A stretch of DNA of 49,544 nucleotides, the filler included, from Candidatus Methanoxibalbensis ujae (GTDB taxonomy: Archaea; Halobacteriota; Syntropharchaeia; Alkanophagales; Methanospirareceae): NCBI GenBank assembly GCA_026134085.1. It is 13 parts of 13 records of this genome, joined end to end, with 100 filler letters (N's around TTAATTAATTAA, not from the genome) between each part and the next. Parts side by side here need not be neighbours in the genome. Positions count along the whole stretch, not along the records: positions 1 to 5,430 come from JAOQIN010000070.1; 12 more parts are not named here. One strand, 5' to 3'. The notes beneath the pieces are model-generated. The model did no database searches, was not told the DNA's origin, and worked only from the letters and a program-made list of their open reading frames with translations. Shown in pieces: positions 1 to 37,287 of this stretch; the first letter of the stretch is position 1, and every line of letters starts with the position of its first letter. The position numbers and the translations under genes were made by a program.

Positions 1-112
1 CCGCTGGAACAGCATATAACAGCGAGGTGGAACAGGCGTTCCAGAAAATGGAATAAGGGGTTCCAGGGAATGGAACAAGTTACAGAACACCGTGGAGAGC
101 TTTTTGATTGGC
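1..112 (-). promoter_or_regulatory. Operator-array promoter (copy B), continuous with 34091-34222
   Basis: TGGAA(C/T) half-sites at 5, 28, 49, 71; perfect palindrome TGGAAC-AGGC-GTTCCA at 28-43; minus-strand TTATAT box at 14-19. Near-identical to 5320-5430. Bases 1-77 are the exact reverse complement of 34091-34167. Confidence 0.75.
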
Positions 113-232
113 AAATGCTAACTCTTATGCTGAGCTTTAAGCAGAAATGTGCGCTTCAACGCAAAATAGGTAAAAGTCCTGTGAAGAAACAAAAATTTAT
201 AATGGGGCTATTGCTTAAGAAGAAGCCATAAA

Positions 233-616
233 ATGACAATAAGAATCTCATTTGGTGTCGAGGATGTGATAAAAATTCATGATGATATAATCGAAAATAC
301 TGGAGGTGCGTTTGGTATTTTGAATAAAGGTTTGATTGGGTTCACGATTGAGCGGGTGAAGGGTGAAGTAATAAAAGAAGAGGATACAGACCTATTTGAA
401 GTTGCATCCCTCATCTTAAGGGATTTCGTTCAGGGTCATCCTTTTGTGGATGGAAACAAGAGAATCGCCTTTGAGGATATATTATTAAGGGATAATGGAT
501 ATATATTTAAAATAGAAAAAGAAGAAGTAATTAAGTTCCTGTTGCAGCTAGCAAAAGGAGAATCAGGATTAAAAGAGGTGAAAGAATGGATAAAAAAGAA
601 GGTAAAATCGAAATAA
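233..616 (+). CDS. Fic/Doc family toxin (death-on-curing type)
   Basis: Fic motif HPFVDGNKR; N-terminal IHDDII..TGG..G typical of Doc proteins; 127 aa. Confidence 0.88.
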   Translation: MTIRISFGVEDVIKIHDDIIENTGGAFGILNKGLIGFTIERVKGEVIKEEDTDLFEVASLILRDFVQGHPFVDGNKRIAFEDILLRDNGYIFKIEKEEVIKFLLQLAKGESGLKEVKEWIKKKVKSK

Positions 617-705
617 AACATACAAGGGATAAGAAGTTGAAGAAACTGCTGAAAGAGTCGATGGAAGGGAATATTGAGTTGCTGCGCGAGCTGGCGAAAT
701 ATTGA
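586..705 (+). CDS. 39-aa putative antitoxin partner of Doc (not in ORF track)
   Basis: ATG at 586 with GAGGTG at 575-580; translates MDKKEGKIEIKHTRDKKLKKLLKESMEGNIELLRELAKY; overlaps the doc 3' end; ends in an amphipathic NxELLxxLAK helix as seen in Doc-associated antitoxins. Confidence 0.6.
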   Translation: MDKKEGKIEIKHTRDKKLKKLLKESMEGNIELLRELAKY

Positions 706-847
706 GAAACCGTAACTCCGCAAGTTAACCCATAGGTAGAACCTCAGGGAACAATGAACACATCCGTCTTGCTCTCTTCGGGATCTTAGCGAACTCTTCC
801 ACTCTTTTCAACAATTTTTGTGACCTTTTCAGCTTCCTCTTTTCCTA

Positions 848-1663
848 TTATGTCTCTTTTTTCCTATCGCTAACTTCTGCCTCTCTGTATATCTTATCAA
901 TTCTTTCCATGATTTCTTTTGCCGTTATTGTGGCTGTTTCTGGCTCTGGAAATGAAGGAGGTCGTAGTCTCAATCTCAGCGTTTTATTCAATGGTGTGCA
1001 TGAAATTTTTGCACCACCGCCAACGGGGTCAAATATACAGTCCATATGGTCCCTGATAAGTTGTTCACTCGCATTTACTGTATATTCACTATATTCGCTA
1101 AGATTTAAGAAAAGTTCTAAAAGAGCGTCAATTTCTTCTCTTGAGATGTGTCCTTCTTTGATTACTATTTCTTTATAATCAGGATAATAATGGTCACTAT
1201 AACATATAACTTTTCCATCGTTAAATATGCTCATCCCTCTCTCTCCTTCAAATACCGTTGAATTCACCGAGATAATAGAATCAATCATCTTCTGCTCCAG
1301 CATATCCCACTTCTCGTCCATCACCGCGGAAGTCACTCTCCCTTGCTCGATGATGATTCTTGCAGTGTGGGGCGTTATGACCTGAGCCAGCATCTGACCC
1401 GTCCTGTTGCCGTATCCCGAATGCCTGCACTGGAATTCAAACACGAATTCCCAGCAACAGGGGCATTTGAGCGTATTTGTCACCACCAACTTCAGGCTAT
1501 CTTCTATGCCATCAAACCTGAAGGTAGGGCTGTTTAGCAAGTAATCATTGGCTATTTCCCGGCTCTTGTCCTTATCCGCTGGCATGGGGCTTTGAGCTAC
1601 GATAATCTCCCAACCATCAATCATCTTGCGATGTAGCTGCTGATTCTCTGGTTGACGCACCAA
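848..1663 (-). CDS. Uncharacterised extracytoplasmic-type protein (SPTFxFDG...GYGxRTG...QVITPH...WDM domain); 5' end apparently disrupted
   Basis: Conserved-looking domain I recognise from methanogen/Chloroflexi hypothetical proteins. The frame continues upstream about 30 codons to a TAA at ~1754-1756. No signal peptide is present. Confidence 0.6.
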   Translation of the reverse strand: MVRQPENQQLHRKMIDGWEIIVAQSPMPADKDKSREIANDYLLNSPTFRFDGIEDSLKLVVTNTLKCPCCWEFVFEFQCRHSGYGNRTGQMLAQVITPHTARIIIEQGRVTSAVMDEKWDMLEQKMIDSIISVNSTVFEGERGMSIFNDGKVICYSDHYYPDYKEIVIKEGHISREEIDALLELFLNLSEYSEYTVNASEQLIRDHMDCIFDPVGGGAKISCTPLNKTLRLRLRPPSFPEPETATITAKEIMERIDKIYREAEVSDRKKET

Positions 1664-1868
1664 TTTGCATTCATCAGTTGCCTCTTCATCTTCTGTTTCA
1701 TTTGGTGAATAGACATCAGCATTTGTACTTACTGAAGGTCCATCGGTGTTCGGTTAAGGAGGATTGCTGAATGCACTACCTAATTTTTAAATTTGCCTTA
1801 AAAAGCTAAACACGGTAGATTTTTAAAAAACGCCCCCTCTCATGCATCTATTCCATTATCTTATATCT

Positions 1869-1887
1869 ATTGGTAACTTTTACCAAT
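1869..1887. repeat. Palindrome ATTGGTAA-N3-TTACCAAT overlapping the stop codon of 1880-2143
   Basis: Read directly; partner copy at 2151-2172. Confidence 0.75.
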
Positions 1888-2143
1888 GTCCCTTGTGTTT
1901 ATCTATTACTTTCTCCACCACATTCCTCAGATGCTTTAGATCTTTCTTCGAAATTTTTATTCGATAATCCTTCTTTATTGCCTTGTAAATTTCATCCTTT
2001 AGCTTTTCAGGATCAACGCCTTTAGCATCTCTTTCTTTACCAACATAGTTCCATATCTGCTTTTTCTTCTCGGGATCCCAACTCACCTCGTAGATATACT
2101 TGTGTCCTTTTATCTCTTTTACAATCAAAGCCACTTTTGCCAC
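1880..2143 (-). CDS. Small basic putative DNA-binding protein
   Basis: 87 aa, Lys-rich; N-terminal KxIKGxxYxY...WD...K..W.YVGK beta motif resembles IS1634 transposase N-termini and small MGE DNA-binding proteins. Minus-strand TTTAAATA box at 2171-2178. Confidence 0.65.
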   Translation of the reverse strand: MAKVALIVKEIKGHKYIYEVSWDPEKKKQIWNYVGKERDAKGVDPEKLKDEIYKAIKKDYRIKISKKDLKHLRNVVEKVIDKHKGHW

Positions 2144-2150
2144 CTCTTAT

Positions 2151-2172
2151 TATTAGTAACTAATTACCAATA
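2151..2172. repeat. Palindrome TATTAGTAA-N4-TTACCAATA between the TATA box and start of 1880-2143
   Basis: One mismatch in the arms; same motif as 1869-1887. Confidence 0.7.
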
Positions 2173-2219
2173 TTTAAAGATAACCTTGATGCGTAGGTTA
2201 AAAAACGTTAGCTGCCAAA

Positions 2220-2420
2220 TTATACGGTATTTATTTTGGTCAGAGATGTGATCCAAATATTAAAGAAGGCTGAGTCAAGGGGATATAGATTGCTTAACCG
2301 AACACACATGACTGAAGGTCTATCAATTGTCTCAAAGCCGAGAGCTAAAACTATAGCTAAAACTAAAACCAAAAATATACCTACTGCTATTTCCTTTTTT
2401 ATTTTAATCAATGATTCCAC
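2220..2420 (-). CDS. Small protein with N-terminal TM/signal helix (possibly a detached N-terminus)
   Basis: KIKKEIAVGIFLVLVLAIVLALGF hydrophobic stretch; starts 4 nt after the regulator stop. Confidence 0.45.
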   Translation of the reverse strand: MESLIKIKKEIAVGIFLVLVLAIVLALGFETIDRPSVMCVRLSNLYPLDSAFFNIWITSLTKINTV

Positions 2421-2424
2421 AGCT

Positions 2425-3012
2425 TTAATGTTGATTTACTACAAACTTCTCACCCAATTTTATCATCTTACTTGTTCCGAAACCATATCTGATGACCAAG
2501 CCTCTTCTTTCCAAATCTGCCAGAATTCTTGAGAGCGAGGACCTCGGAATACCTGTTCTGGCGGCAAGCTCCGCTTGATTCATCTCACCAAAATCTAACA
2601 GGGTTTTGATAATTTTAGGCTCGTTTCCTTTCAAAACTCCCAGTATCTCTTCGATTTTATCCCGGCTTATATCTGGAATTTGTCTTTCATAATTTGAAGC
2701 GGAAGCCTTTTCAACAGTGGAAACACGCTCTGATTTTTTCTCCAAAGCAGGTTTGACATCAACAAACAGGAGGTATATAGCACTGATTCCGAGCAGAAGA
2801 GCAGAAACGGTAACGATGACCATGTCAGCGAGAGTATAAAATCCCGGCATTTGACTTACAATTACATCGCTTCCTTCTACAAAAATGTTGATGGGCGTAG
2901 GAGTGATGAGTTTTATACCTGTTATGAATATGGAAGCTATGAACAACACCGCCATGAATATTGATACGGTTTTACCGTGAACATCCATTCTCTTTCGTGC
3001 CATCTCCATCAT
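2425..3012 (-). CDS. Membrane-anchored winged-HTH transcriptional regulator (COG2512-like)
   Basis: Two hydrophobic helices, then LKGNE.KII..L...GEMNQAELAARTGIPRSSLSRILADLERRGLV wHTH. Start likely ATG 3012, 3009 or 3003 (GGAG upstream) rather than 3075. Confidence 0.82.
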   Translation of the reverse strand: MMEMARKRMDVHGKTVSIFMAVLFIASIFITGIKLITPTPINIFVEGSDVIVSQMPGFYTLADMVIVTVSALLLGISAIYLLFVDVKPALEKKSERVSTVEKASASNYERQIPDISRDKIEEILGVLKGNEPKIIKTLLDFGEMNQAELAARTGIPRSSLSRILADLERRGLVIRYGFGTSKMIKLGEKFVVNQH

Positions 3013-3616
3013 CTCCGCGGCAAGAGCTAACGTTAATAATGTAAAAGCGGTTATTAAATTTTTTCGCCTCTTCAATATTGACTACTTTCTCGTTGTTAAC
3101 ATCCACTGTCACTTCATATTTTTTGTTTTCTACAGCGACGACGACCTCAGCAACGACTCCTTCTTCTCCTTGAAATATCCTCCACATTAACGTTGAATAT
3201 TCCTTCCCATTAACGAGCTCTTTAACTCTTTGATTGGTTTCAGCTATCCTGAATGTCTTATTTATCAAACTCTCTTTATTTTTGTACTGCTCACTTTGAT
3301 TGTTTAGTTGTTCTTTTGTTATATACTTCAACGAAATCCCCCTATTCTTTTCACCGCGGGAAAATTTGACTCCAGTTGCTCCTTCAGGCAATTTAAAGGA
3401 TTGCAGAACTTCTCCTTCTCGAATCAAGTTCAGGGTTCTGTTGCCCTCATCTAATGCGGTAACGACCTTAGCCTGAAAACTGATAGGCAATTGTTCTGCA
3501 ATGCCGGTAGCATAAGCTACTGCGACCATACCAATTCCTATTACTGCTAATATTCCCAGAAGCATCACTTTATTTACGATAATTCCTTCTATTATTTTCA
3601 CCCGTTTATTTTTCAT
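2972..3616 (-). CDS. Membrane-anchored protein with a PepSY-like domain; paralog of 35391-35825 and 36517-37287
   Basis: TM LLGILAVIGIGMVAVAY; C-terminal IAETNQRVKELVNGKEY...VTVDVNNEKVVNI matches IALSDPEV..I..GK.Y...VDL.K..V..I of the paralogs. Confidence 0.65.
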   Translation of the reverse strand: MKNKRVKIIEGIIVNKVMLLGILAVIGIGMVAVAYATGIAEQLPISFQAKVVTALDEGNRTLNLIREGEVLQSFKLPEGATGVKFSRGEKNRGISLKYITKEQLNNQSEQYKNKESLINKTFRIAETNQRVKELVNGKEYSTLMWRIFQGEEGVVAEVVVAVENKKYEVTVDVNNEKVVNIEEAKKFNNRFYIINVSSCRGDDGDGTKENGCSR

Positions 3617-3635
3617 CTTTTTTCATTTGCTTTTC

Positions 3636-4213
3636 CTACGCAGGGCCGATTGCAATGTACTGGATGTAATTGTTTGAAAGATCATCAATAGCAGTTATAC
3701 GTGCGTCAAAGGAACTGGTACTTATCCAACCTCTATCAATGGCATAGTGTGCCTTTGCCTCGTAGGGATAGACTTCATTTGTCCACACTACATTGGGAGT
3801 ATATCTTCAAATACTATTGGGAAGTGTACTCTGATCAAAGCAGTTTCACCTGCAGAAAGGGAATAAGAATCTGTTCTACCACTGACGATAGTATAACTTC
3901 CACTGTGTGTAACATAAAAAGTCACGTTAAGCACTGCGACGAGTTCAGCAGATTCTTTATCTGATTCCTTATAAACTTTGGCTTTTGTCGGTGTTTTCAC
4001 TGCTTCCGTAATATACCCATCTTCTTTTTCTTCTTCAGAATCTGGGATATCCTTGGTTATTCCTTTGCTACTTTCTGCCACAACGAGTACAGGTTCACTT
4101 GAACTTCTCGCCTTTTCGACATAAGCCACTGTAGAAAGCTTTTTTGCTGCTACAATTAATACAACACTGCATACCAGTAGCGCTATTATTCCAATTGCCA
4201 ATATCTTTTTCAT
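3636..4213 (-). pseudogene. Secreted precursor protein with an apparent single frameshift near 3800
   Basis: Signal MKKILAIGIIALLVCSVVLIVAA. The annotated frame stops at 3788, but a shifted frame continues RYTPNVVWTNEVYPYEAKAHYAIDRGWISTSSFDARITAIDDLSNNYIQYIAIGPA to TAG at 3638-3636, ~20 nt before the next start. Confidence 0.6.
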
Positions 4214-4270
4214 CTTTTTTATTACTTCTCTTCCTTATAAAGCGATCCCTCGGCGCATACATATTTCCTG

Positions 4271-4307
4271 TGGAAAGTATATAAATGTAAGTGGAACAGG
4301 TGTTCCC
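4271..4307 (-). promoter_or_regulatory. Single-operator promoter (copy C)
   Basis: TGGAAC-AGGT-GTTCCC at 4292-4307, next to minus-strand TTTATATA (4278-4285), with a TGGAAA half-site at 4271; same geometry as copies A and B. Confidence 0.7.
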
Positions 4308-4323
4308 AAAAATGTATGAAAAT

Positions 4324-4356
4324 TAAAAAAAATAAATCGGGGCGAGAGAACGCCCC
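4324..4356 (-). terminator. Hairpin plus T-tract after 4402-5253
   Basis: GGGGCG-N6-CGCCCC (4339-4356) followed on the minus strand by a T-rich run. Confidence 0.55.
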
Positions 4357-4401
4357 ATTTGTTTAATTTTTTCATATTATGTGGTTATAACCCTGCATTC
4401 G

Positions 4402-5253
4402 TTAGGTAGTTCCGGCATTACCTGCAACGCCGCCATAGCAATTCACTGTAACCCATGCCCATGCTGATACCGACTGCCCAAGTGGACCACTGAAGTCAGC
4501 ATCAGCATCAACCTTTCCTAAGCATGAGTGAGGTATTGTTGCTTCACTGCTGAATGAATCACACTGCCATCCTAAAGCACTGTTATGGTACTCTGAAGAG
4601 TGATCTACCACACTAAGCATTTCTACACCGTACTCGTAAGTAAAGCTACCGCTGGCTGTGAGCTTCCACAACGTAATGCCAAATATGTTTTTTCCTTCTA
4701 TACTCTGTGATGCATCCGTAACGTGGATATCACGGGTTCTTAGTCTAAGCAGATATTCTTCACTCTCTCTACTTTTGTATATTTCTGCACAGATAGCTTT
4801 TTGGTCCTTCTCTTCGCCCACAGTATTAAGCTTCTGTACTAAGATTTCATTTGAAGAGCTCTTGTTTACAAGCATTGGTTCTATCTCCTTCACATCAGTA
4901 GCACCGTTTTCTCTAAATACTTCCACGTACTTTATGTCCTCCTTATTGTTTTCATTGCTCAATTTTACAAGAGCATCATACCCATCGTCACTTGTATTGA
5001 TCCACAGTAGCTTGGCTGAGTAGCCGTCGATTTGGGCTTTGTTAAGTATCTCCTCTTCTACTTGCCGTGGTACATCTGGCTTCTCTATTGGTTTGGGTAA
5101 CCCATCCGATATTTTAATCGTTTCACTTGAGATACCACCTTCAATACTTGTCATTACAGAGGGATTTATCTCGTTGTTACCGATTATAGCTGCAACTAGT
5201 CCAACACCTAACATCAATATCGCTATGACGCCGATCGCCAATATTTTTTTCAT
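4402..5253 (-). CDS. Secreted precursor: signal peptide, charged pro-region, C-terminal beta-rich domain
   Basis: MKKILAIGVIAILMLGVGLVAA signal; GGAGGTG RBS at 5266-5272; C-terminal ~105 aa KNIFGITLWKLTASGSFTY...GW.C...AWAWVTVNCYG, rich in Ser, Gly, Ala and Trp. Confidence 0.75.
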   Translation of the reverse strand: MKKILAIGVIAILMLGVGLVAAIIGNNEINPSVMTSIEGGISSETIKISDGLPKPIEKPDVPRQVEEEILNKAQIDGYSAKLLWINTSDDGYDALVKLSNENNKEDIKYVEVFRENGATDVKEIEPMLVNKSSSNEILVQKLNTVGEEKDQKAICAEIYKSRESEEYLLRLRTRDIHVTDASQSIEGKNIFGITLWKLTASGSFTYEYGVEMLSVVDHSSEYHNSALGWQCDSFSSEATIPHSCLGKVDADADFSGPLGQSVSAWAWVTVNCYGGVAGNAGTT

Positions 5254-5264
5254 CTTTTTCGCTT

Positions 5265-5430
5265 TCACCTCCTAAAGAGCGCTACGCCCTCTCGGCGTTA
5301 AAGCACTCCATACGGACCTCCGCTGGAACAGCATATAACTGAGAGGTGGAACAGGCGTTCCAGAAAATGGAACAGGTGTTCCGGAAAATGAAACAAGTAA
5401 AGAACAAGAGAGAAAGCTTTTTGATTGGCA
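5265..5430 (-). promoter_or_regulatory. Operator-array promoter plus 5'UTR/RBS (copy A)
   Basis: Half-sites at 5324, 5347, 5368, 5389 (23/21/21-bp spacing); TGGAAC-AGGC-GTTCCA at 5347-5362 and TGGAAC-AGGT-GTTCCG at 5368-5383. UTR 5265-5319 is nearly identical to the reverse complement of 34168-34222. Confidence 0.75.
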
Positions 5431-34090: not shown

Positions 34091-34222
34091 TGTTCCATTC
34101 CCTGGAACCCCTTATTCCATTTTCTGGAACGCCTGTTCCACCTCGCTGTTATATGCTGTTCCAGCGGAGGTCCGTATGGAGTGCTTTAACGCCGGGGGGG
34201 CGTGGCGCTCCTTAGGAGGTGA
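34091..34222 (+). promoter_or_regulatory. Operator-array promoter plus 5'UTR/RBS (copy B, continuation of 1-112)
   Basis: 34091-34167 is the reverse complement of 1-77; TTATAT at 34149-34154; GGAGGTG at 34215-34221. Confidence 0.75.
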
Positions 34223-34229
34223 GCGCGGG

Positions 34230-34787
34230 ATGAAGAAGAAAGCGACTGTTTTGGTTGCCCTGATAAGCATGTGCCTGATTGCGACGGCGGGGATCGGAGC
34301 GGTAAGCGCGAGTGATGAGCCAGTTGGTGACTACGTGATAACGATATTTAAGATAAACCCTGATGGAACCACTACGACGATTGAAACCTTCGAAAGCAGT
34401 GGTCCTATAGTGGTAAAGGAGACCATGAATGAAGACGGTAGCAGGAATATAATCAGGGAATACAGGGAAAGAACAGAAGACGAGCTCCATTTAGATGAAG
34501 CATGTATAACAACGGGGACATCAGAAACAGAAGTTCCGATGAGGATTGAGGAAGAAAACTTCACTATAGTAGTCGATACCCTGGAAAACCTCACTGCAGA
34601 TACTCTGATGCCTCTAAAGCCATCAAAAAAAATAGACGCATCGGCGAGGCAGATATACCACGAAGCATGCACATACAACCATGTAATAGGCAGTGGATGT
34701 TGCATATATGGGTACTGTTACTGCTGTGGCGTAGCTGCAGAGTCTTGTGACAGCTACCGGGCGTGCTACGGCTACAACTGTTGCTAA
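34230..34787 (+). CDS. Secreted precursor with acidic pro-region and C-terminal 10-Cys peptide
   Basis: Signal MKKKATVLVALISMCLIATAGIGAVSA; Glu/Thr-rich middle; ends CTYNHVIGSGCCIYGYCYCCGVAAESCDSYRACYGYNCC. Confidence 0.8.
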   Translation: MKKKATVLVALISMCLIATAGIGAVSASDEPVGDYVITIFKINPDGTTTTIETFESSGPIVVKETMNEDGSRNIIREYRERTEDELHLDEACITTGTSETEVPMRIEEENFTIVVDTLENLTADTLMPLKPSKKIDASARQIYHEACTYNHVIGSGCCIYGYCYCCGVAAESCDSYRACYGYNCC

Positions 34788-34826
34788 GAGGTCATAAGAT
34801 ATGGCAAAGGAATAAAATAAAAGTTT

Positions 34827-34858
34827 GGTGGGCTATTCATTTTTTGCCCACTTTTTTT
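34827..34858 (+). terminator. Hairpin plus T7
   Basis: GTGGGC...GCCCAC followed by TTTTTTT. Confidence 0.55.
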
Positions 34859-34913
34859 ATTTTCGGTGTCTGGAAAAAGAAAAAATGATGGGAAAAGGAG
34901 GTGAGAAGAAGAG

Positions 34914-35375
34914 ATGAAAATGGTAAGAATTAGTGTATCTGCGGTGATCATACTGATCGGAATATCAGTGGGGGTTGGTATAATTATTGCAAATAATAAG
35001 ATGCCGAAGATGATAATAGGCCCAGGAGGCGGCATATCCATTGATAACAGCACGATTGAACCTCCTAATAAGTCTAGTGGGGGATGGGGAGGGTATAACT
35101 ACACGATAGGCCCTAACGGCACAGTGATTAAAGGAACCCTTAACGAATCCAATATGCCCCATCTGGATAACATATCGAATAAAACATCACATTATGTTGA
35201 TTACTGGAATGCCACACCAAGCCCAAATGCTACATTAATAACGCCTGACATCGTATCCACACCATCTGCCACTGCACAGCATGGATCGCGCCAAATTCCA
35301 GGATTTAACGTGGGTTTAGCAATTGTAATGATACCGCTGGTATCCTGTCTAATGCGTAAAAAACGGGGTAGATAA
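34914..35375 (+). CDS. Small PGF-CTERM surface glycoprotein (archaeosortase substrate)
   Basis: N-terminal hydrophobic helix; many NxS/T sequons; ends IPGFNVGLAIVMIPLVSCLMRKKRGR (PGF, TM, basic tail). Confidence 0.82.
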   Translation: MKMVRISVSAVIILIGISVGVGIIIANNKMPKMIIGPGGGISIDNSTIEPPNKSSGGWGGYNYTIGPNGTVIKGTLNESNMPHLDNISNKTSHYVDYWNATPSPNATLITPDIVSTPSATAQHGSRQIPGFNVGLAIVMIPLVSCLMRKKRGR

Positions 35376-35390
35376 ACCACGAGATAAAAG

Positions 35391-35825
35391 GTGATGGAAA
35401 TGAACAAAAAAGAGATCATGGGGGTATTAGCAATAATAGGAGCGGGAATAGCATTCGTATATTTTGGAACGAATATTGGAGTGATGATTACGGGAGAGAA
35501 TGAAACAGTTCCGAGATTAACGGAAATCCCGTCTAAACCGGGTGAGATCATTATAGGAAAGAATGACACGGGAGAGATACCAGAATTAACAGAGGAGCAA
35601 AAAGAGAAGGCAAAAGAGATTGCTCTATCAGACCCCGAAGTGAGGAAGATAGTAGAGGGGAAAAGATATGAGATAAAAGTAACTCCAATGATAATGACAG
35701 TAATAAATGGAGAGACAAAGAAAACAACAAAAATCTCAGTAAATTTTGAATTCGAAGATGGAACGAGGATGAAAGTGTTTGTAGACTTGGATAAGGAAGA
35801 GGTAACAAGAATATGGTCGCAGTGA
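35391..35825 (+). CDS. Membrane-anchored PepSY-like domain protein
   Basis: TM GVLAIIGAGIAFVYFG; LTEEQKEKAKEIALSDPEVRKIVEGKRY...VFVDLDKEEVTRI. Confidence 0.7.
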   Translation: MMEMNKKEIMGVLAIIGAGIAFVYFGTNIGVMITGENETVPRLTEIPSKPGEIIIGKNDTGEIPELTEEQKEKAKEIALSDPEVRKIVEGKRYEIKVTPMIMTVINGETKKTTKISVNFEFEDGTRMKVFVDLDKEEVTRIWSQ

Positions 35826-35866: not shown

Positions 35867-36490
35867 ATGAAGATGATTTCTAAAAAATCAAAATGGTTTG
35901 TAATTCTGGGGATGATAGTAGTGTCAGTTACAGCAGCGGTATTCGCCGGTGCATATATCATCCAATCCCCAGCGCATATCGGTAATAACAGCAATATTAC
36001 TCATGACGGAAACAGAAACCAATCCATAAGCTATGCGACATATACGACTGCAAACTTCACGATGGACTATCCCGCTGACTGGACCGTGATTCCTATGGCA
36101 TCAAAAATTGTCTTCGTCTCGAAAACCGGATATGAAGGAGGATATATAACGTTAAATATACAACTTCTATCGTCTGTTGAAAGTGGAGGAATTTATAATT
36201 CAGTTGAGGACGTGGTGGCGGATTTAGTGCAGCGGTTTCCGGGAGATGTAAAAAACGTCAGTAATGTCAGTATAAACTATGAGCGAGAAGAGATGTTGGG
36301 TGGAACAAAAGGAATTGAAATAAGTATTTCATACACCGCTCACAATATAAGTTATACACAAACACAAATTATCGCACAAAAAGGTAAATATTTTTATGTG
36401 CTTACATATCATGCCCCCACAGCATATTACGGCGAGTATGAAGAGGCATACGAATATGCAAAGAAGCACTGGACCTGGAAATTTTCGTGA
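35867..36490 (+). CDS. PsbP/Mog1-like extracytoplasmic protein
   Basis: Signal/TM; FTMDYPADWTV; LGG.KG..I.Y; YFYVLTY.AP...Y. Confidence 0.72.
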   Translation: MKMISKKSKWFVILGMIVVSVTAAVFAGAYIIQSPAHIGNNSNITHDGNRNQSISYATYTTANFTMDYPADWTVIPMASKIVFVSKTGYEGGYITLNIQLLSSVESGGIYNSVEDVVADLVQRFPGDVKNVSNVSINYEREEMLGGTKGIEISISYTAHNISYTQTQIIAQKGKYFYVLTYHAPTAYYGEYEEAYEYAKKHWTWKFS

Positions 36491-36516
36491 TAACTAAAAG
36501 GAGGTGATATAAAAAA

Positions 36517-37287
36517 ATGGAAGAAAAGGGCATTGCCATATTGGGAGTACTGGCATTTATAGGGATAGGTATGGCTTTCCTTTTCGTCGGGCTCATGGTC
36601 GGCGAAACAGGAAAGCCTCATGAGGATGTATGGATGTATCAGAATCTGGCGAAAGCAGCACAAACAGTGCAAATGCCGATGCTGACTGAAGAACAGCAAC
36701 AGAAAGCGATTGAAATCGCAAAGCAGAATGAAACCGTTAGACAATACTTAGAACGGGGATACAAGATGCTCGGCATAAGTTCAACTTTTGGCAATATATC
36801 TGATGGTGAAACAGCAATAACAGATGTATATGTCACCCTCAACAGGGATAAAGACTGGGTATTCGCAAATGTAAACCTGAACAAAGAGAAGGTCACAGGA
36901 ATACTCAAGTCACATGGAGAAATTGCGGGATTGGAGATGCGAGAAGATGGCGAGATCAAAGCAGTGAATGAGACCGAGCTAAGAATAGCGATTGTAGGCG
37001 GGGAGGGCAAGCTGATAAGGGCTCCGAAAGTGCGGGAATTGACTGAAGAAGAGCGCGAGAGAGCAGGAGAAATTGCCCTCTCGGACCCGGAGGTGCAGAA
37101 CATCATAAACGGGAAGAGTTACGAGATGAAGATAAGACCAGCGGGTGTAATTATAACAAACGAAGCAGGAGAGGTGGAAACGAAATTTAACGGTGCATCA
37201 GTAATGTTCGAGCTGGAAGATGGAACGATATACTTCGTGCATGTGGACCTGGAGAAAGGAAAGGTGATAAGGGTAAGTCCACCGCTC
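36517..37287 (+). CDS. Membrane-anchored protein with two PepSY-like domains (3' end at contig edge)
   Basis: TM GVLAFIGIGMAFLFVG; LTEEQQQKAIEIAKQNETV...VNLNKEKV and LTEEERERAGEIALSDPEV...VDLEKGKV. Confidence 0.7.

Follow-up and report, generated by a model that had tools for sequence, protein, structure and literature searches.

Several described systems resemble parts of the locus presented here. According to the available text of PMC10269533, transmembrane transcription regulators are widespread, including in archaea, where there are about four per genome, and the paper gives BcrR, a bacitracin sensor bound to the membrane, as a cited case. ToxRS is called a 'co-component' system in the accessible portion of PMC13042144, and the excerpted text of PMC12714742 reports that DbfQ, a small PepSY protein, directly controls the sensor kinase DbfS and that PepSY-sensor gene pairs are enriched more than 60-fold. 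For archaeal 'dark matter islands' (arCOG00194), the available text of PMC4158269 describes an ABC ATPase, a diverged permease and a large diverged extracellular protein as abundant in variable islands, and proposes a role for these operons in resistance to antibiotics or chemicals. The locus lies in a 49.5-kb stretch of DNA (the window; 49,544 nucleotides) made of 13 contigs of one metagenome-assembled genome (MAG) of Candidatus Methanoxibalbensis ujae, separated by spacers of N/TTAATTAATTAA. Judged by its genes and repeats, it is on balance probably a self-regulating envelope-sensing circuit, in which a membrane-anchored winged helix-turn-helix (wHTH) regulator and a PepSY-like partner would act through a repeated operator on an ABC-2 exporter and on strain-variable exported proteins.

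The source MAG (G000) comprises 1.99 Mb in 86 contigs with a stated completeness of 89%. Contig 1 of the window (positions 1-5430; G000:C68) and contig 8 (34091-37287; G000:C79) carry the locus, and bases 1-77 match 34091-34167 exactly on the opposite strand (node X). Named homologs of the locus proteins belong to Methanophagales/ANME-1 archaea, and the metagenome runs that hold the stretch are mostly from hydrothermal vents and sediment. The comparison set consisted of 79 genomes of the class, from which 32 stretches were fetched and 42 promoter copies in relatives were classified.

The defining element of the locus is a promoter unit. The palindrome GGAAC-N4-GTTCC occurs five times in the window against an expectation of 0.02, a count reached in none of 100 shuffles, and nine times in the 1.99-Mb genome (1.5 expected for independent, identically distributed bases), with eight of the nine copies at this locus. 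It adjoins the TATA box of all three exported-protein genes, each of which has operator, TATA box and leader; an earlier note made from the sequence alone had placed all three directly behind one operator type. The whole operator-promoter-leader unit measures ∼110 bases, is present in four copies at this locus and is near-invariant in 24 of the 79 related genomes. The copies in the window are as follows.

1..113, minus strand: promoter B, upstream half and core (node X), with half-sites GTTCC/GGAAC, palindrome GGAACAGGCGTTCC at 29-42 and TATA box (reverse complement TTATATGC) at 12-19; it points left off the contig end, to the 10-Cys gene
34091..34229, plus strand: promoter B core (reverse complement of node X), with leader hairpin and Shine-Dalgarno sequence
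4214..4330, minus strand: promoter C, with palindrome GGAACAGGTGTTCC at 4293-4306, TATA box TTTATATA and leader
5254..5430, minus strand: promoter A, with palindromes at 5348-5361 and 5369-5382, TATA box, leader hairpin and Shine-Dalgarno sequence; its last 77 bases (node Y) are common to another contig, C73

The consensus of the 42 distinct aligned copies reads CTTGTTCCATTTTcT-GGAACGCcTGTTCC-ACCtc.CTa-TTaTATGCTGTTCCA-.CcgAgaTttgtAtGg. A GTTCC half-site 7 bases 5' of the core palindrome is invariant, a second palindrome (N4 or N5) lies one ∼21-base step further upstream in 26 of the 42 copies, and the TATA box stands 9 bases 3' of the core palindrome. An additional GTTCC is found between the TATA box and a conserved GTATGG (CGTATGG, ∼25 bases past TATA), which, because of its distance to the TATA box, would mark the start-site region. 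The operator is placed just 5' of the transcription factor B recognition element (BRE) and TATA box, with a further half-site between TATA and the likely start site, as seen in promoter A. In the leader class of exported-protein and regulator genes, a hairpin immediately precedes the Shine-Dalgarno sequence, with ten predicted pairs, two of them with compensatory changes (16 sequences). At 5262-5300 (minus strand) and 34178-34216 (plus strand) it has the form GAGUGCU..ACGCC-loop-GGCGU..AGCGCUC, and the module is duplicated in the relatives L054, L063 and L078; the leaders of ABC-type operons have a different hairpin. The repeat extends into the signal-peptide codons: the exported proteins of 283 and 141 amino acids (aa) are 64% identical over 22 aa, with nothing beyond. 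In one relative (L068, G069:C113, 5240-5465), two full promoter cores stand in tandem, 44 bases apart, before a single exported-protein gene.

The candidate regulator is encoded by two paralogous genes.

2425..3012, minus strand: regulator paralog a, with two hydrophobic segments and a C-terminal winged helix
G000:C67:208-822 (L002:208-822): regulator paralog b, directly following the double PepSY-like gene

Both paralogs have two 19-aa windows of mean Kyte-Doolittle hydropathy 2.3-2.5, conserved in 16 aligned sequences (residues 39-57 and 86-104 of the long open reading frame (ORF) of regulator a); the transmembrane (TM) segments are read from these windows rather than from a dedicated TM predictor. 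Regulator a matches the Pfam families MarR_2 (39.3 bits, cut-off 27; E 7.6e-10), HTH_24, TrmB and DUF7343, and regulator b matches MarR_2 (40.1 bits), DUF7343 (39.1) and TrmB (38.1). The earlier description of a membrane-anchored wHTH protein is borne out by these segments and matches, and as predicted proteins both paralogs are transmembrane transcription regulators under the definition of a TM region plus a DNA-binding domain (PMC10269533). Regulators a and b are 43% identical, and the ortholog of regulator a in G013 is 88% identical. In a collection of 5.8 billion proteins, 269 matches to the regulator-b profile were found at E<=1e-5, among which the names are MarR/wHTH regulator or 'membrane protein, TrmB family'; the records read Methanophagales, ANME-1, 'Halobacteriota', 'Euryarchaeota', 'archaeon' or uncultured archaeon. 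Regulator b itself is identical or 97% identical on contigs of 211 kb and 179 kb.

Three PepSY-like proteins belong to the locus; the two encoded immediately ahead of a regulator, PepSY-like A and the double protein, are the candidate partners.

2972..3616, minus strand: PepSY-like A, 214 aa, exported, with N-terminal anchor; no Pfam match, label from sequence pattern only
35391..35825, plus strand: single PepSY-like protein (PepSY-like B), 144 aa, anchored
36517..37287, plus strand: double PepSY-like protein, 271 aa, the last 14 aa on C67

PepSY-like A is paired with regulator a also in G013, G019, G012 and G004, and the 144-aa protein shares 40% identity with domain 2 of the double PepSY-like protein. 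The latter models as an anchor helix and two domains of a helix and four strands (predicted local distance difference test (pLDDT) 70-95 in the domains, 62 overall). Its best Foldseek rows include PepSY-containing structures, all at E > 0.001: the vibriolysin propeptide (3nqz_A, E 1.8e-3), YpeB (5boi), YpmB (2gu3) and CD1622. In the VIA comparison, the best single-domain PepSY match is again 3nqz_A (Z 7.4, root-mean-square deviation 2.9, 76 aa), with CD1622 (4exr) and UipA (7ath) both at Z 6.4; comparable scores come from a designed cystatin fold (Z 7.6) and from N-domains of amine oxidases. The 'PepSY-like' label of the earlier note thus stands at fold level (Z 7.4) but finds no hidden Markov model (HMM) match, and it is best taken as a fold-level statement of moderate strength. 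A complex prediction for residues 1-100 of regulator b with the double PepSY-like protein (score 0.02, mark 0.32) speaks neither for nor against binding.

Comparison across the class associates the promoter with the regulator. The strict 37-base core (GGAAC-N4-GTTCC-N9-TTWTATGCTGTTCC) is present in 24 of the 79 genomes, all of one family (Methanophagales/ANME-1, 23 of 65, plus G000), and the reversed control pattern has no match in the 79 genomes. A promoter-bearing genome has between one and five copies, many of them close to the end of a contig. With profile A5 at E<=1e-20, the regulator family is found in 23 of the 79 genomes: 18 have both promoter and regulator, 6 the promoter only, 5 the regulator only and 50 neither, and G019, counted as promoter only, holds a split regulator-a gene. 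The TM-wHTH is accordingly coupled in the genomes to the operator-promoter across genera, in keeping with the control by a membrane regulator that the earlier note proposed; since the genomes are related and incomplete, this co-occurrence is an association and no test. A promoter acting solely in cis beside a regulator gene was considered and rejected, because G013 copies on C38 and C88 have no regulator nearby.

Genomic neighborhoods of the 42 promoter copies in relatives show what the unit heads. The most frequent cargo is an ABC-2 exporter operon (15 copies), composed either of an ATPase of ∼304 aa, one or more ABC-2 permeases and a NEW3/CARDB protein of ∼490 aa, or of an ATPase of 245 aa and a permease of 477 aa. 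Behind another 17 copies (16 genes) stand exported proteins that fall into several families without mutual relation. An ArsR-like gene follows 7 copies, in one case broken, the PepSY-like/regulator pair comes immediately after 2, and 1 points antisense into a Doc module. Three arrangements are seen: promoter, PepSY-like and regulator, alone amid housekeeping genes (G023, L018); promoter, ArsR-like, ABC ATPase, permease, NEW3/CARDB protein, PepSY-like and regulator (G061, L065); and promoter, exported protein(s), PsbP-like, double PepSY-like and regulator (L070, L073, L023, L068). The PepSY-like/regulator-b pair closes the operons of L017, L018, L023, L065, L068, L070, L076 and L080, and the regulator-b gene also closes those of L054, L056 and L073 (partial in L054 and L073). 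A regulator gene and the promoter lie on the same stretch in 11 of the 32 fetched stretches. The ArsR-like protein (L070:4773-5081) and its orthologs (L067, L072, L065, L062) have a conserved C-terminal ELCDFELC (C-x4-C) which, judged by eye, could be a metal or redox site.

The ORFs and gene order of contigs 1 and 8 are those that the earlier note gave. In G000, promoter A is followed by the 283-aa protein; promoter C by the 141-aa protein (perhaps frameshifted), PepSY-like A, regulator a, a TM peptide, a basic protein and a truncated surface-protein remnant; and promoter B by the 10-Cys protein, a PGF-tailed protein, PepSY-like B, a PsbP-like protein, the double PepSY-like protein and regulator b. 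On C73 the same promoter heads an ABC ATPase, an ABC-2 permease, a NEW3/CARDB protein and a remnant with a frameshift, whose relative is the C-domain of the 283-aa protein. This exporter matches PF00005 (ABC_tran ATPase, 102.9 bits) and PF12679 (ABC-2 permease, 164.9 bits); the ATPase is similar to TIGR03740 (E 5.6e-58) and TIGR01188 (262 bits), both below their cut-offs, and the pump is ABC-2/DrrA-like, without a peptidase domain. The ABC-2 exporter on C73, the second regulator paralog on C67 and the ArsR-like gene of relatives were not part of the earlier picture. Cargo differs among genomes and also within the source sample, in agreement with the proposal that the exported proteins are interchangeable: one contig of run X6 has 360 other letters in place of 34487-35389, and runs X2 and X5 have loose ends at 34330, with different sequence just behind the signal peptide. 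These variants indicate a cargo slot that varies both within and between samples, and the exchange takes place between a conserved head and a conserved PepSY-like/PsbP-like tail.

The exported and anchored proteins of the locus are the following.

4402..5253, minus strand: 283-aa exported protein, with signal/anchor, cystatin/PepSY-like domain (∼58-128) and beta-sandwich (176-283)
3636..4213, minus strand: 141-aa exported protein and an overlapping 56-codon open frame, orphan
34230..34787, plus strand: 10-Cys exported protein, 185 aa, with conserved N-domain and variable aromatic/Cys-rich tail
34914..35375, plus strand: PGF-tailed protein, 153 aa, with N-terminal anchor and C-terminal PGF, TM segment and RKKRGR
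35867..36490, plus strand: PsbP-like protein, 207 aa, anchored; PF18933 at 28.6 bits against a cut-off of 27 (marginal)

The first three are mutually unrelated beyond the signal peptide. The 283-aa protein has nine homologs, of which the two with an organism name are both from Methanophagales, and its family appears to be ANME-1-only. In its model, the cystatin/PepSY-like domain scores Z 5-7, and the sandwich (pLDDT ∼90) is nearest to the uncharacterized lmo2686 (4k15_A; Z 8.1, root-mean-square deviation 3.1, 93 aa); Foldseek against the PDB gives nothing at E<=0.001, and the best ESM Atlas score, 0.83, is below lead level. Two folded domains suggest an envelope protein with no obvious pro-peptide. 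In the 141-aa gene, two frames overlap at 3788-3806, so that the frameshift described earlier is plausible; the mature part, however, has no homolog with which it could be compared. The 185-aa protein has 10 Cys in its last 45 aa. In its family (57 clusters) the signal and N-domain are conserved, and the tail ends in aromatic residues or Cys, with 0 to 10 Cys; a disulfide-rich peptide is therefore not a family trait, and the 10-Cys tail is one extreme. The PGF-CTERM label of the 153-aa protein holds by eye but not by HMM, as neither PF18204 nor TIGR04126 matches it, even when all six frames are searched at E<=1. The genome does encode archaeosortase A (TIGR04125, 187.4 bits, cut-off 75), on C56.

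Joining contig 8 to contig 1 through node X, as the earlier note did, is supported by an exact 77-base match, but the match is not unique: C73 (4903 bp, outside the window) begins with the same 77-mer. C68 and C73 have exactly their first 77 and last 77 bases in common (nodes X and Y), which identifies them as alternative paths through an assembly-graph bubble. An all-contig end comparison finds 77-base end overlaps throughout the assembly, which is what a de Bruijn graph with k = 77 would give. Many contigs, among them others of the window (e.g., C74, C76, C83 and C81), have such overlaps with at least two partners; bubbles at strain level are thus frequent in the MAG, and further contig joins could be proposed likewise. 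In the direction of transcription, the graph runs from Y through either C68 or C73 to X, C79 and C67. The end of C79 overlaps C67 by 77 bases, and the double PepSY-like gene ends on C67, where it is followed by the second TM-wHTH gene and then by housekeeping genes. In a third variant, C40 leads straight into the end of the double PepSY-like gene, bypassing C79: the end of C40 (L003 9780-10000) fuses a broken ArsR-like start to the last part of that gene, overlapping C79 near its position 3080 (window ∼37170). The C40 end represents a deletion haplotype that joins C67 without the whole contig-8 block; in run X1 the depth climbs from 490.8 to 676.6 at this position.

Unitig depths in the likely source run (Logan unitigs) are 176 for the C68-specific piece, 268 for the branch into C73-type sequence, 189.9 for the 10-Cys/PGF segment (34286-35426), 490.8 for the PsbP-like/double PepSY-like segment (35882-37162) and 676.6 for the last 155 bases of C79; this evidence consists of unitig depths and internal loose ends and carries no phasing across the 77-mer. 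The depths are unequal but roughly add up, and so fit two or three co-assembled haplotypes. By depth (176 vs 190), C68 pairs weakly with the 10-Cys allele of contig 8, the join made in the earlier note, and the C40 deletion variant would be of comparable depth (676.6 - 490.8). That a single genome instead carries C68 and C73 in tandem, with a linking contig too short for the 2-kb cut-off, is improbable. Both are flanked by copies of the same promoter repeat and the smallest contig kept measures 2001 bp, so a short linker could be missing; yet the C68, C73-branch, 10-Cys and shared downstream depths fit alternative haplotypes, and in two other runs C73-type sequence alone follows node X. An exact scan of JGI metagenome contigs for the X-specific 37-mer gave no match. 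Synteny elsewhere supports contig 1 followed by contig 8 as a natural order: on G019:C98, a PepSY-like gene and the split regulator-a gene come first, and behind them lie the promoter, a member of the 10-Cys family and a PsbP-like gene.

In the envelope-sensing circuit favored here, the two-pass winged-helix regulator is predicted to bind GGAAC-N4-GTTCC flanking the TATA box, and would control its own operon as well as the ABC-2 exporter and a set of exported envelope proteins that varies from strain to strain. As the loop between the two hydrophobic segments is only about 25-28 aa in each paralog, the regulator would need a co-sensor; such a short loop suggests sensing through a partner, as in intramembrane-sensing kinases. 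The PepSY-like gene, always directly 5' of the regulator gene, makes its product the obvious co-sensor candidate, which may relay an extracytoplasmic signal across the membrane; the output would be envelope defense or stress relief through export by the ABC-2 pump and through surface proteins. Several observations weigh against this circuit. Six promoter-bearing genomes have no regulator match and five regulator-bearing genomes no promoter, and some promoter copies lie on contigs remote from regulator genes (e.g., G013:C38 and C88). The case as a whole is built on comparative genomics, with MAGs that are incomplete, related and hence not independent. The fold Z scores of the PepSY-like domain are in the tool's middling range, Pfam PepSY (PF03413) matches none of the four locus proteins and one of 13 family members (E 0.78), and all seven exported cargo proteins tested from relatives are without a Pfam family. 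Finally, the ArsR-like wHTH encoded first behind 7 of the 42 copies could bind the operator instead.

It is unlikely that this small cytoplasmic ArsR-like protein (HTH_20/HTH_5) is the operator-binding autoregulator, with the membrane regulator and its partner as a second layer or as cargo. Autoregulation through palindromes is common among ArsR-type repressors, and all 10 of the 79 genomes that have the gene also have the promoter, as would be expected; however, these are only 10 of the 24 promoter-bearing genomes. G000 has four promoter copies and just a broken remnant of the gene at the end of C40, and the minimal module of G023 has no ArsR-like gene nearby, all of which favors regulator a or b as the probable operator-binding protein. 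The earlier note saw in the locus an archaeocin or effector island, whose precursors would be cleaved to C-terminal peptides and served by the exporter and surface proteins for export or immunity. The 10-Cys family, with its conserved signal and N-domain and its hypervariable aromatic/Cys-rich tail of ∼45 aa, lends itself to that idea: 18 of its 57 homologs align to the C-terminal region (query residue >=170) and 39 to the N-terminal part only. Cargo is swapped between strains, and the ABC ATPase resembles lantibiotic-protection and DrrA-type exporters, albeit below cut-offs. Nevertheless, HMM searches matched no leader-cleavage motif, maturation enzyme, peptidase-domain ABC transporter or bacteriocin/halocin family, the 283-aa protein models as two folded domains, the three supposed precursors are unrelated, tail Cys number varies from 0 to 10, and 15 of the 42 copies drive ABC operons without an exported small protein directly behind. 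The terms precursor, pro-protein and archaeocin are therefore unsupported, and the island so conceived is distinctly unlikely.

Extracytoplasmic metal sensing and sequestration, with PepSY-like domains and Cys/Trp-rich tails binding metal under an ArsR/SmtB-like regulator and with ABC-2 export, is very unlikely. It could draw on the fold match to UipA, a PepSY protein that a reference title in PMC12714742 presents as uranium- and iron-binding, on the C-x4-C of an ArsR-family protein within the regulon, on the 10-Cys tail and on the hydrothermal-vent source. The UipA similarity is, however, fold-level only, the Cys-rich tail is not conserved, reading of the ArsR-like sequence finds no canonical ArsR metal site, and no metal transporter family is matched. 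A further proposal, which we regard as doubtful, extends the favored circuit: the promoter, leader and signal peptide may form a portable 'socket' into which recombination swaps exported proteins, Cys/Trp-tailed ones among them, beside an ABC exporter, so that co-existing strains would display or release differing cargo under a common signal. If true, the locus would correspond, in archaea of methane-oxidizing consortia, to polymorphic toxin/immunity or kin-recognition loci.

At the left end of contig 1, on the strand opposite to the other genes of that contig, lies a Doc module.

233..616, plus strand: Doc toxin (Fic fold), 127 aa, with motif HPFVDGNKR
115..231, plus strand: 38-aa ORF, ending 1 base before the Doc start
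586..705, plus strand: 39-aa basic ORF, overlapping the Doc end

The toxin is well supported (TIGR01550, 87.6 bits vs a cut-off of 38.65; PF02661, E 1.2e-11), and HPFVDGNKR fits the Fic/Doc motif. Of the toxin-antitoxin module claimed for this end, which in the earlier note's proposal would stabilize the island, the toxin half stands, but family HMM searches recognize no antitoxin family in either the upstream 38-aa or the downstream 39-aa ORF; the former is a possible short antitoxin, and its DNA is 91% conserved beside Doc in G081. The 39-aa ORF is 92% conserved in G006 beside a promoter element, without Doc; there, the ORF and its upstream region are kept and Doc is lost. In L081 (G081:C160, 486-1057) a promoter copy points antisense into the 39-aa ORF and the Doc gene, and in L023 (G006:C170, 4418-4640) a palindrome-less promoter remnant runs antisense into the 39-aa ORF. 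The interval 709-826, between the Doc module and the next ORF, has a depth of ∼3000 in run X3 and is flanked on both sides by different sequence in runs X1, X3 and X4. It has no Rfam or tRNA match, and an attC-like or structured element at 700-835 was rejected (fold z-score 0.55; no copy in the genome or the fetched relatives). Three further genes complete the contig.

848..1663, minus strand: 271-aa ORF, with no hydrophobic segment, signal or PGF-CTERM
1880..2143, minus strand: basic protein, 87 aa, no family and no homolog in the fetched relatives
2220..2420, minus strand: single-TM peptide, 66 aa, no homolog found

The C-terminal 141 aa of the 271-aa ORF are 85% identical to an internal region of a PGF-CTERM protein (430 aa) encoded in G004 (L021:1864-3156), and it is probably the truncated remnant of a surface protein. 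Several cargo genes look decayed, namely this ORF, the frameshifted gene at 3636-4213 and the C73 remnant. A search of 1-5430 for tRNAs and Rfam families found none, and so gives no hint of integration at a tRNA gene.

ANME-1 archaea, all of them uncultured, are central to the anaerobic oxidation of methane, and their sensing and gene regulation are almost unstudied. The locus offers a precisely defined, testable regulon, with an invariant operator by the TATA box, a leader hairpin, a candidate regulator and partner, and exporter and exported outputs; for an in vitro assay of DNA binding, no culture would be needed. Because strains exchange cargo while promoter and signal peptide stay constant, the locus is a hot spot at which the surface or secretome varies within one population, which bears on interactions inside methane-oxidizing consortia. 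Strain-level exchange behind a constant unit is also why metagenome assemblies break at this region.

Among described systems, ToxR/ToxS and TcpP/TcpH are closest in plan, pairing a membrane-tethered DNA-binding domain with an adjacent small membrane-anchored extracytoplasmic partner. Unlike ToxR and TcpP, the regulators described here carry a C-terminal wHTH after two TM segments, which is MarR/TrmB-like rather than OmpR-like, and their family is ANME-1-restricted by named matches, with targets marked by a portable promoter-leader unit; unlike ToxS and TcpH, the partner is PepSY/cystatin-like and encoded upstream. BcrR-bcrABD of Enterococcus faecalis, likened here by description and not by sequence comparison, also combines a membrane-bound DNA-binding protein with an ABC exporter operon. 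BcrR reportedly has an N-terminal XRE-type HTH and four TM segments, and no accessory protein. The DbfQ-DbfS-DbfR system of Vibrio cholerae likewise has the gene of a small, exported PepSY protein next to that of the membrane sensor on which it acts, and tandem PepSY genes occur, according to the available text of PMC12714742; DbfS, however, is a bacterial two-component histidine kinase, whereas the present locus has an archaeal one-component membrane regulator and a PepSY assignment at fold level only. For the ABC operons of dark matter islands, the accessible portion of PMC4158269 mentions neither a membrane regulator or operator of their own nor a promoter cassette in common. The hypervariable secreted-protein module of Thermococcales shares with this locus a conserved frame with fast-exchanged secreted genes, for which conflict or self/non-self recognition is discussed, but consists of other proteins (an Ig-domain giant protein), and no shared promoter-operator or membrane regulator is described in the available part of PMC8416519. 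A literature search on ANME-1/Methanophagales together with membrane-bound regulators, PepSY and hypervariable secreted genes, with supplements outside its scope, returned no description of the system. Its parts come from known classes, and as a whole it is likely a co-component membrane regulator of ANME-1, equipped with its own operator and a portable promoter-leader-signal unit.

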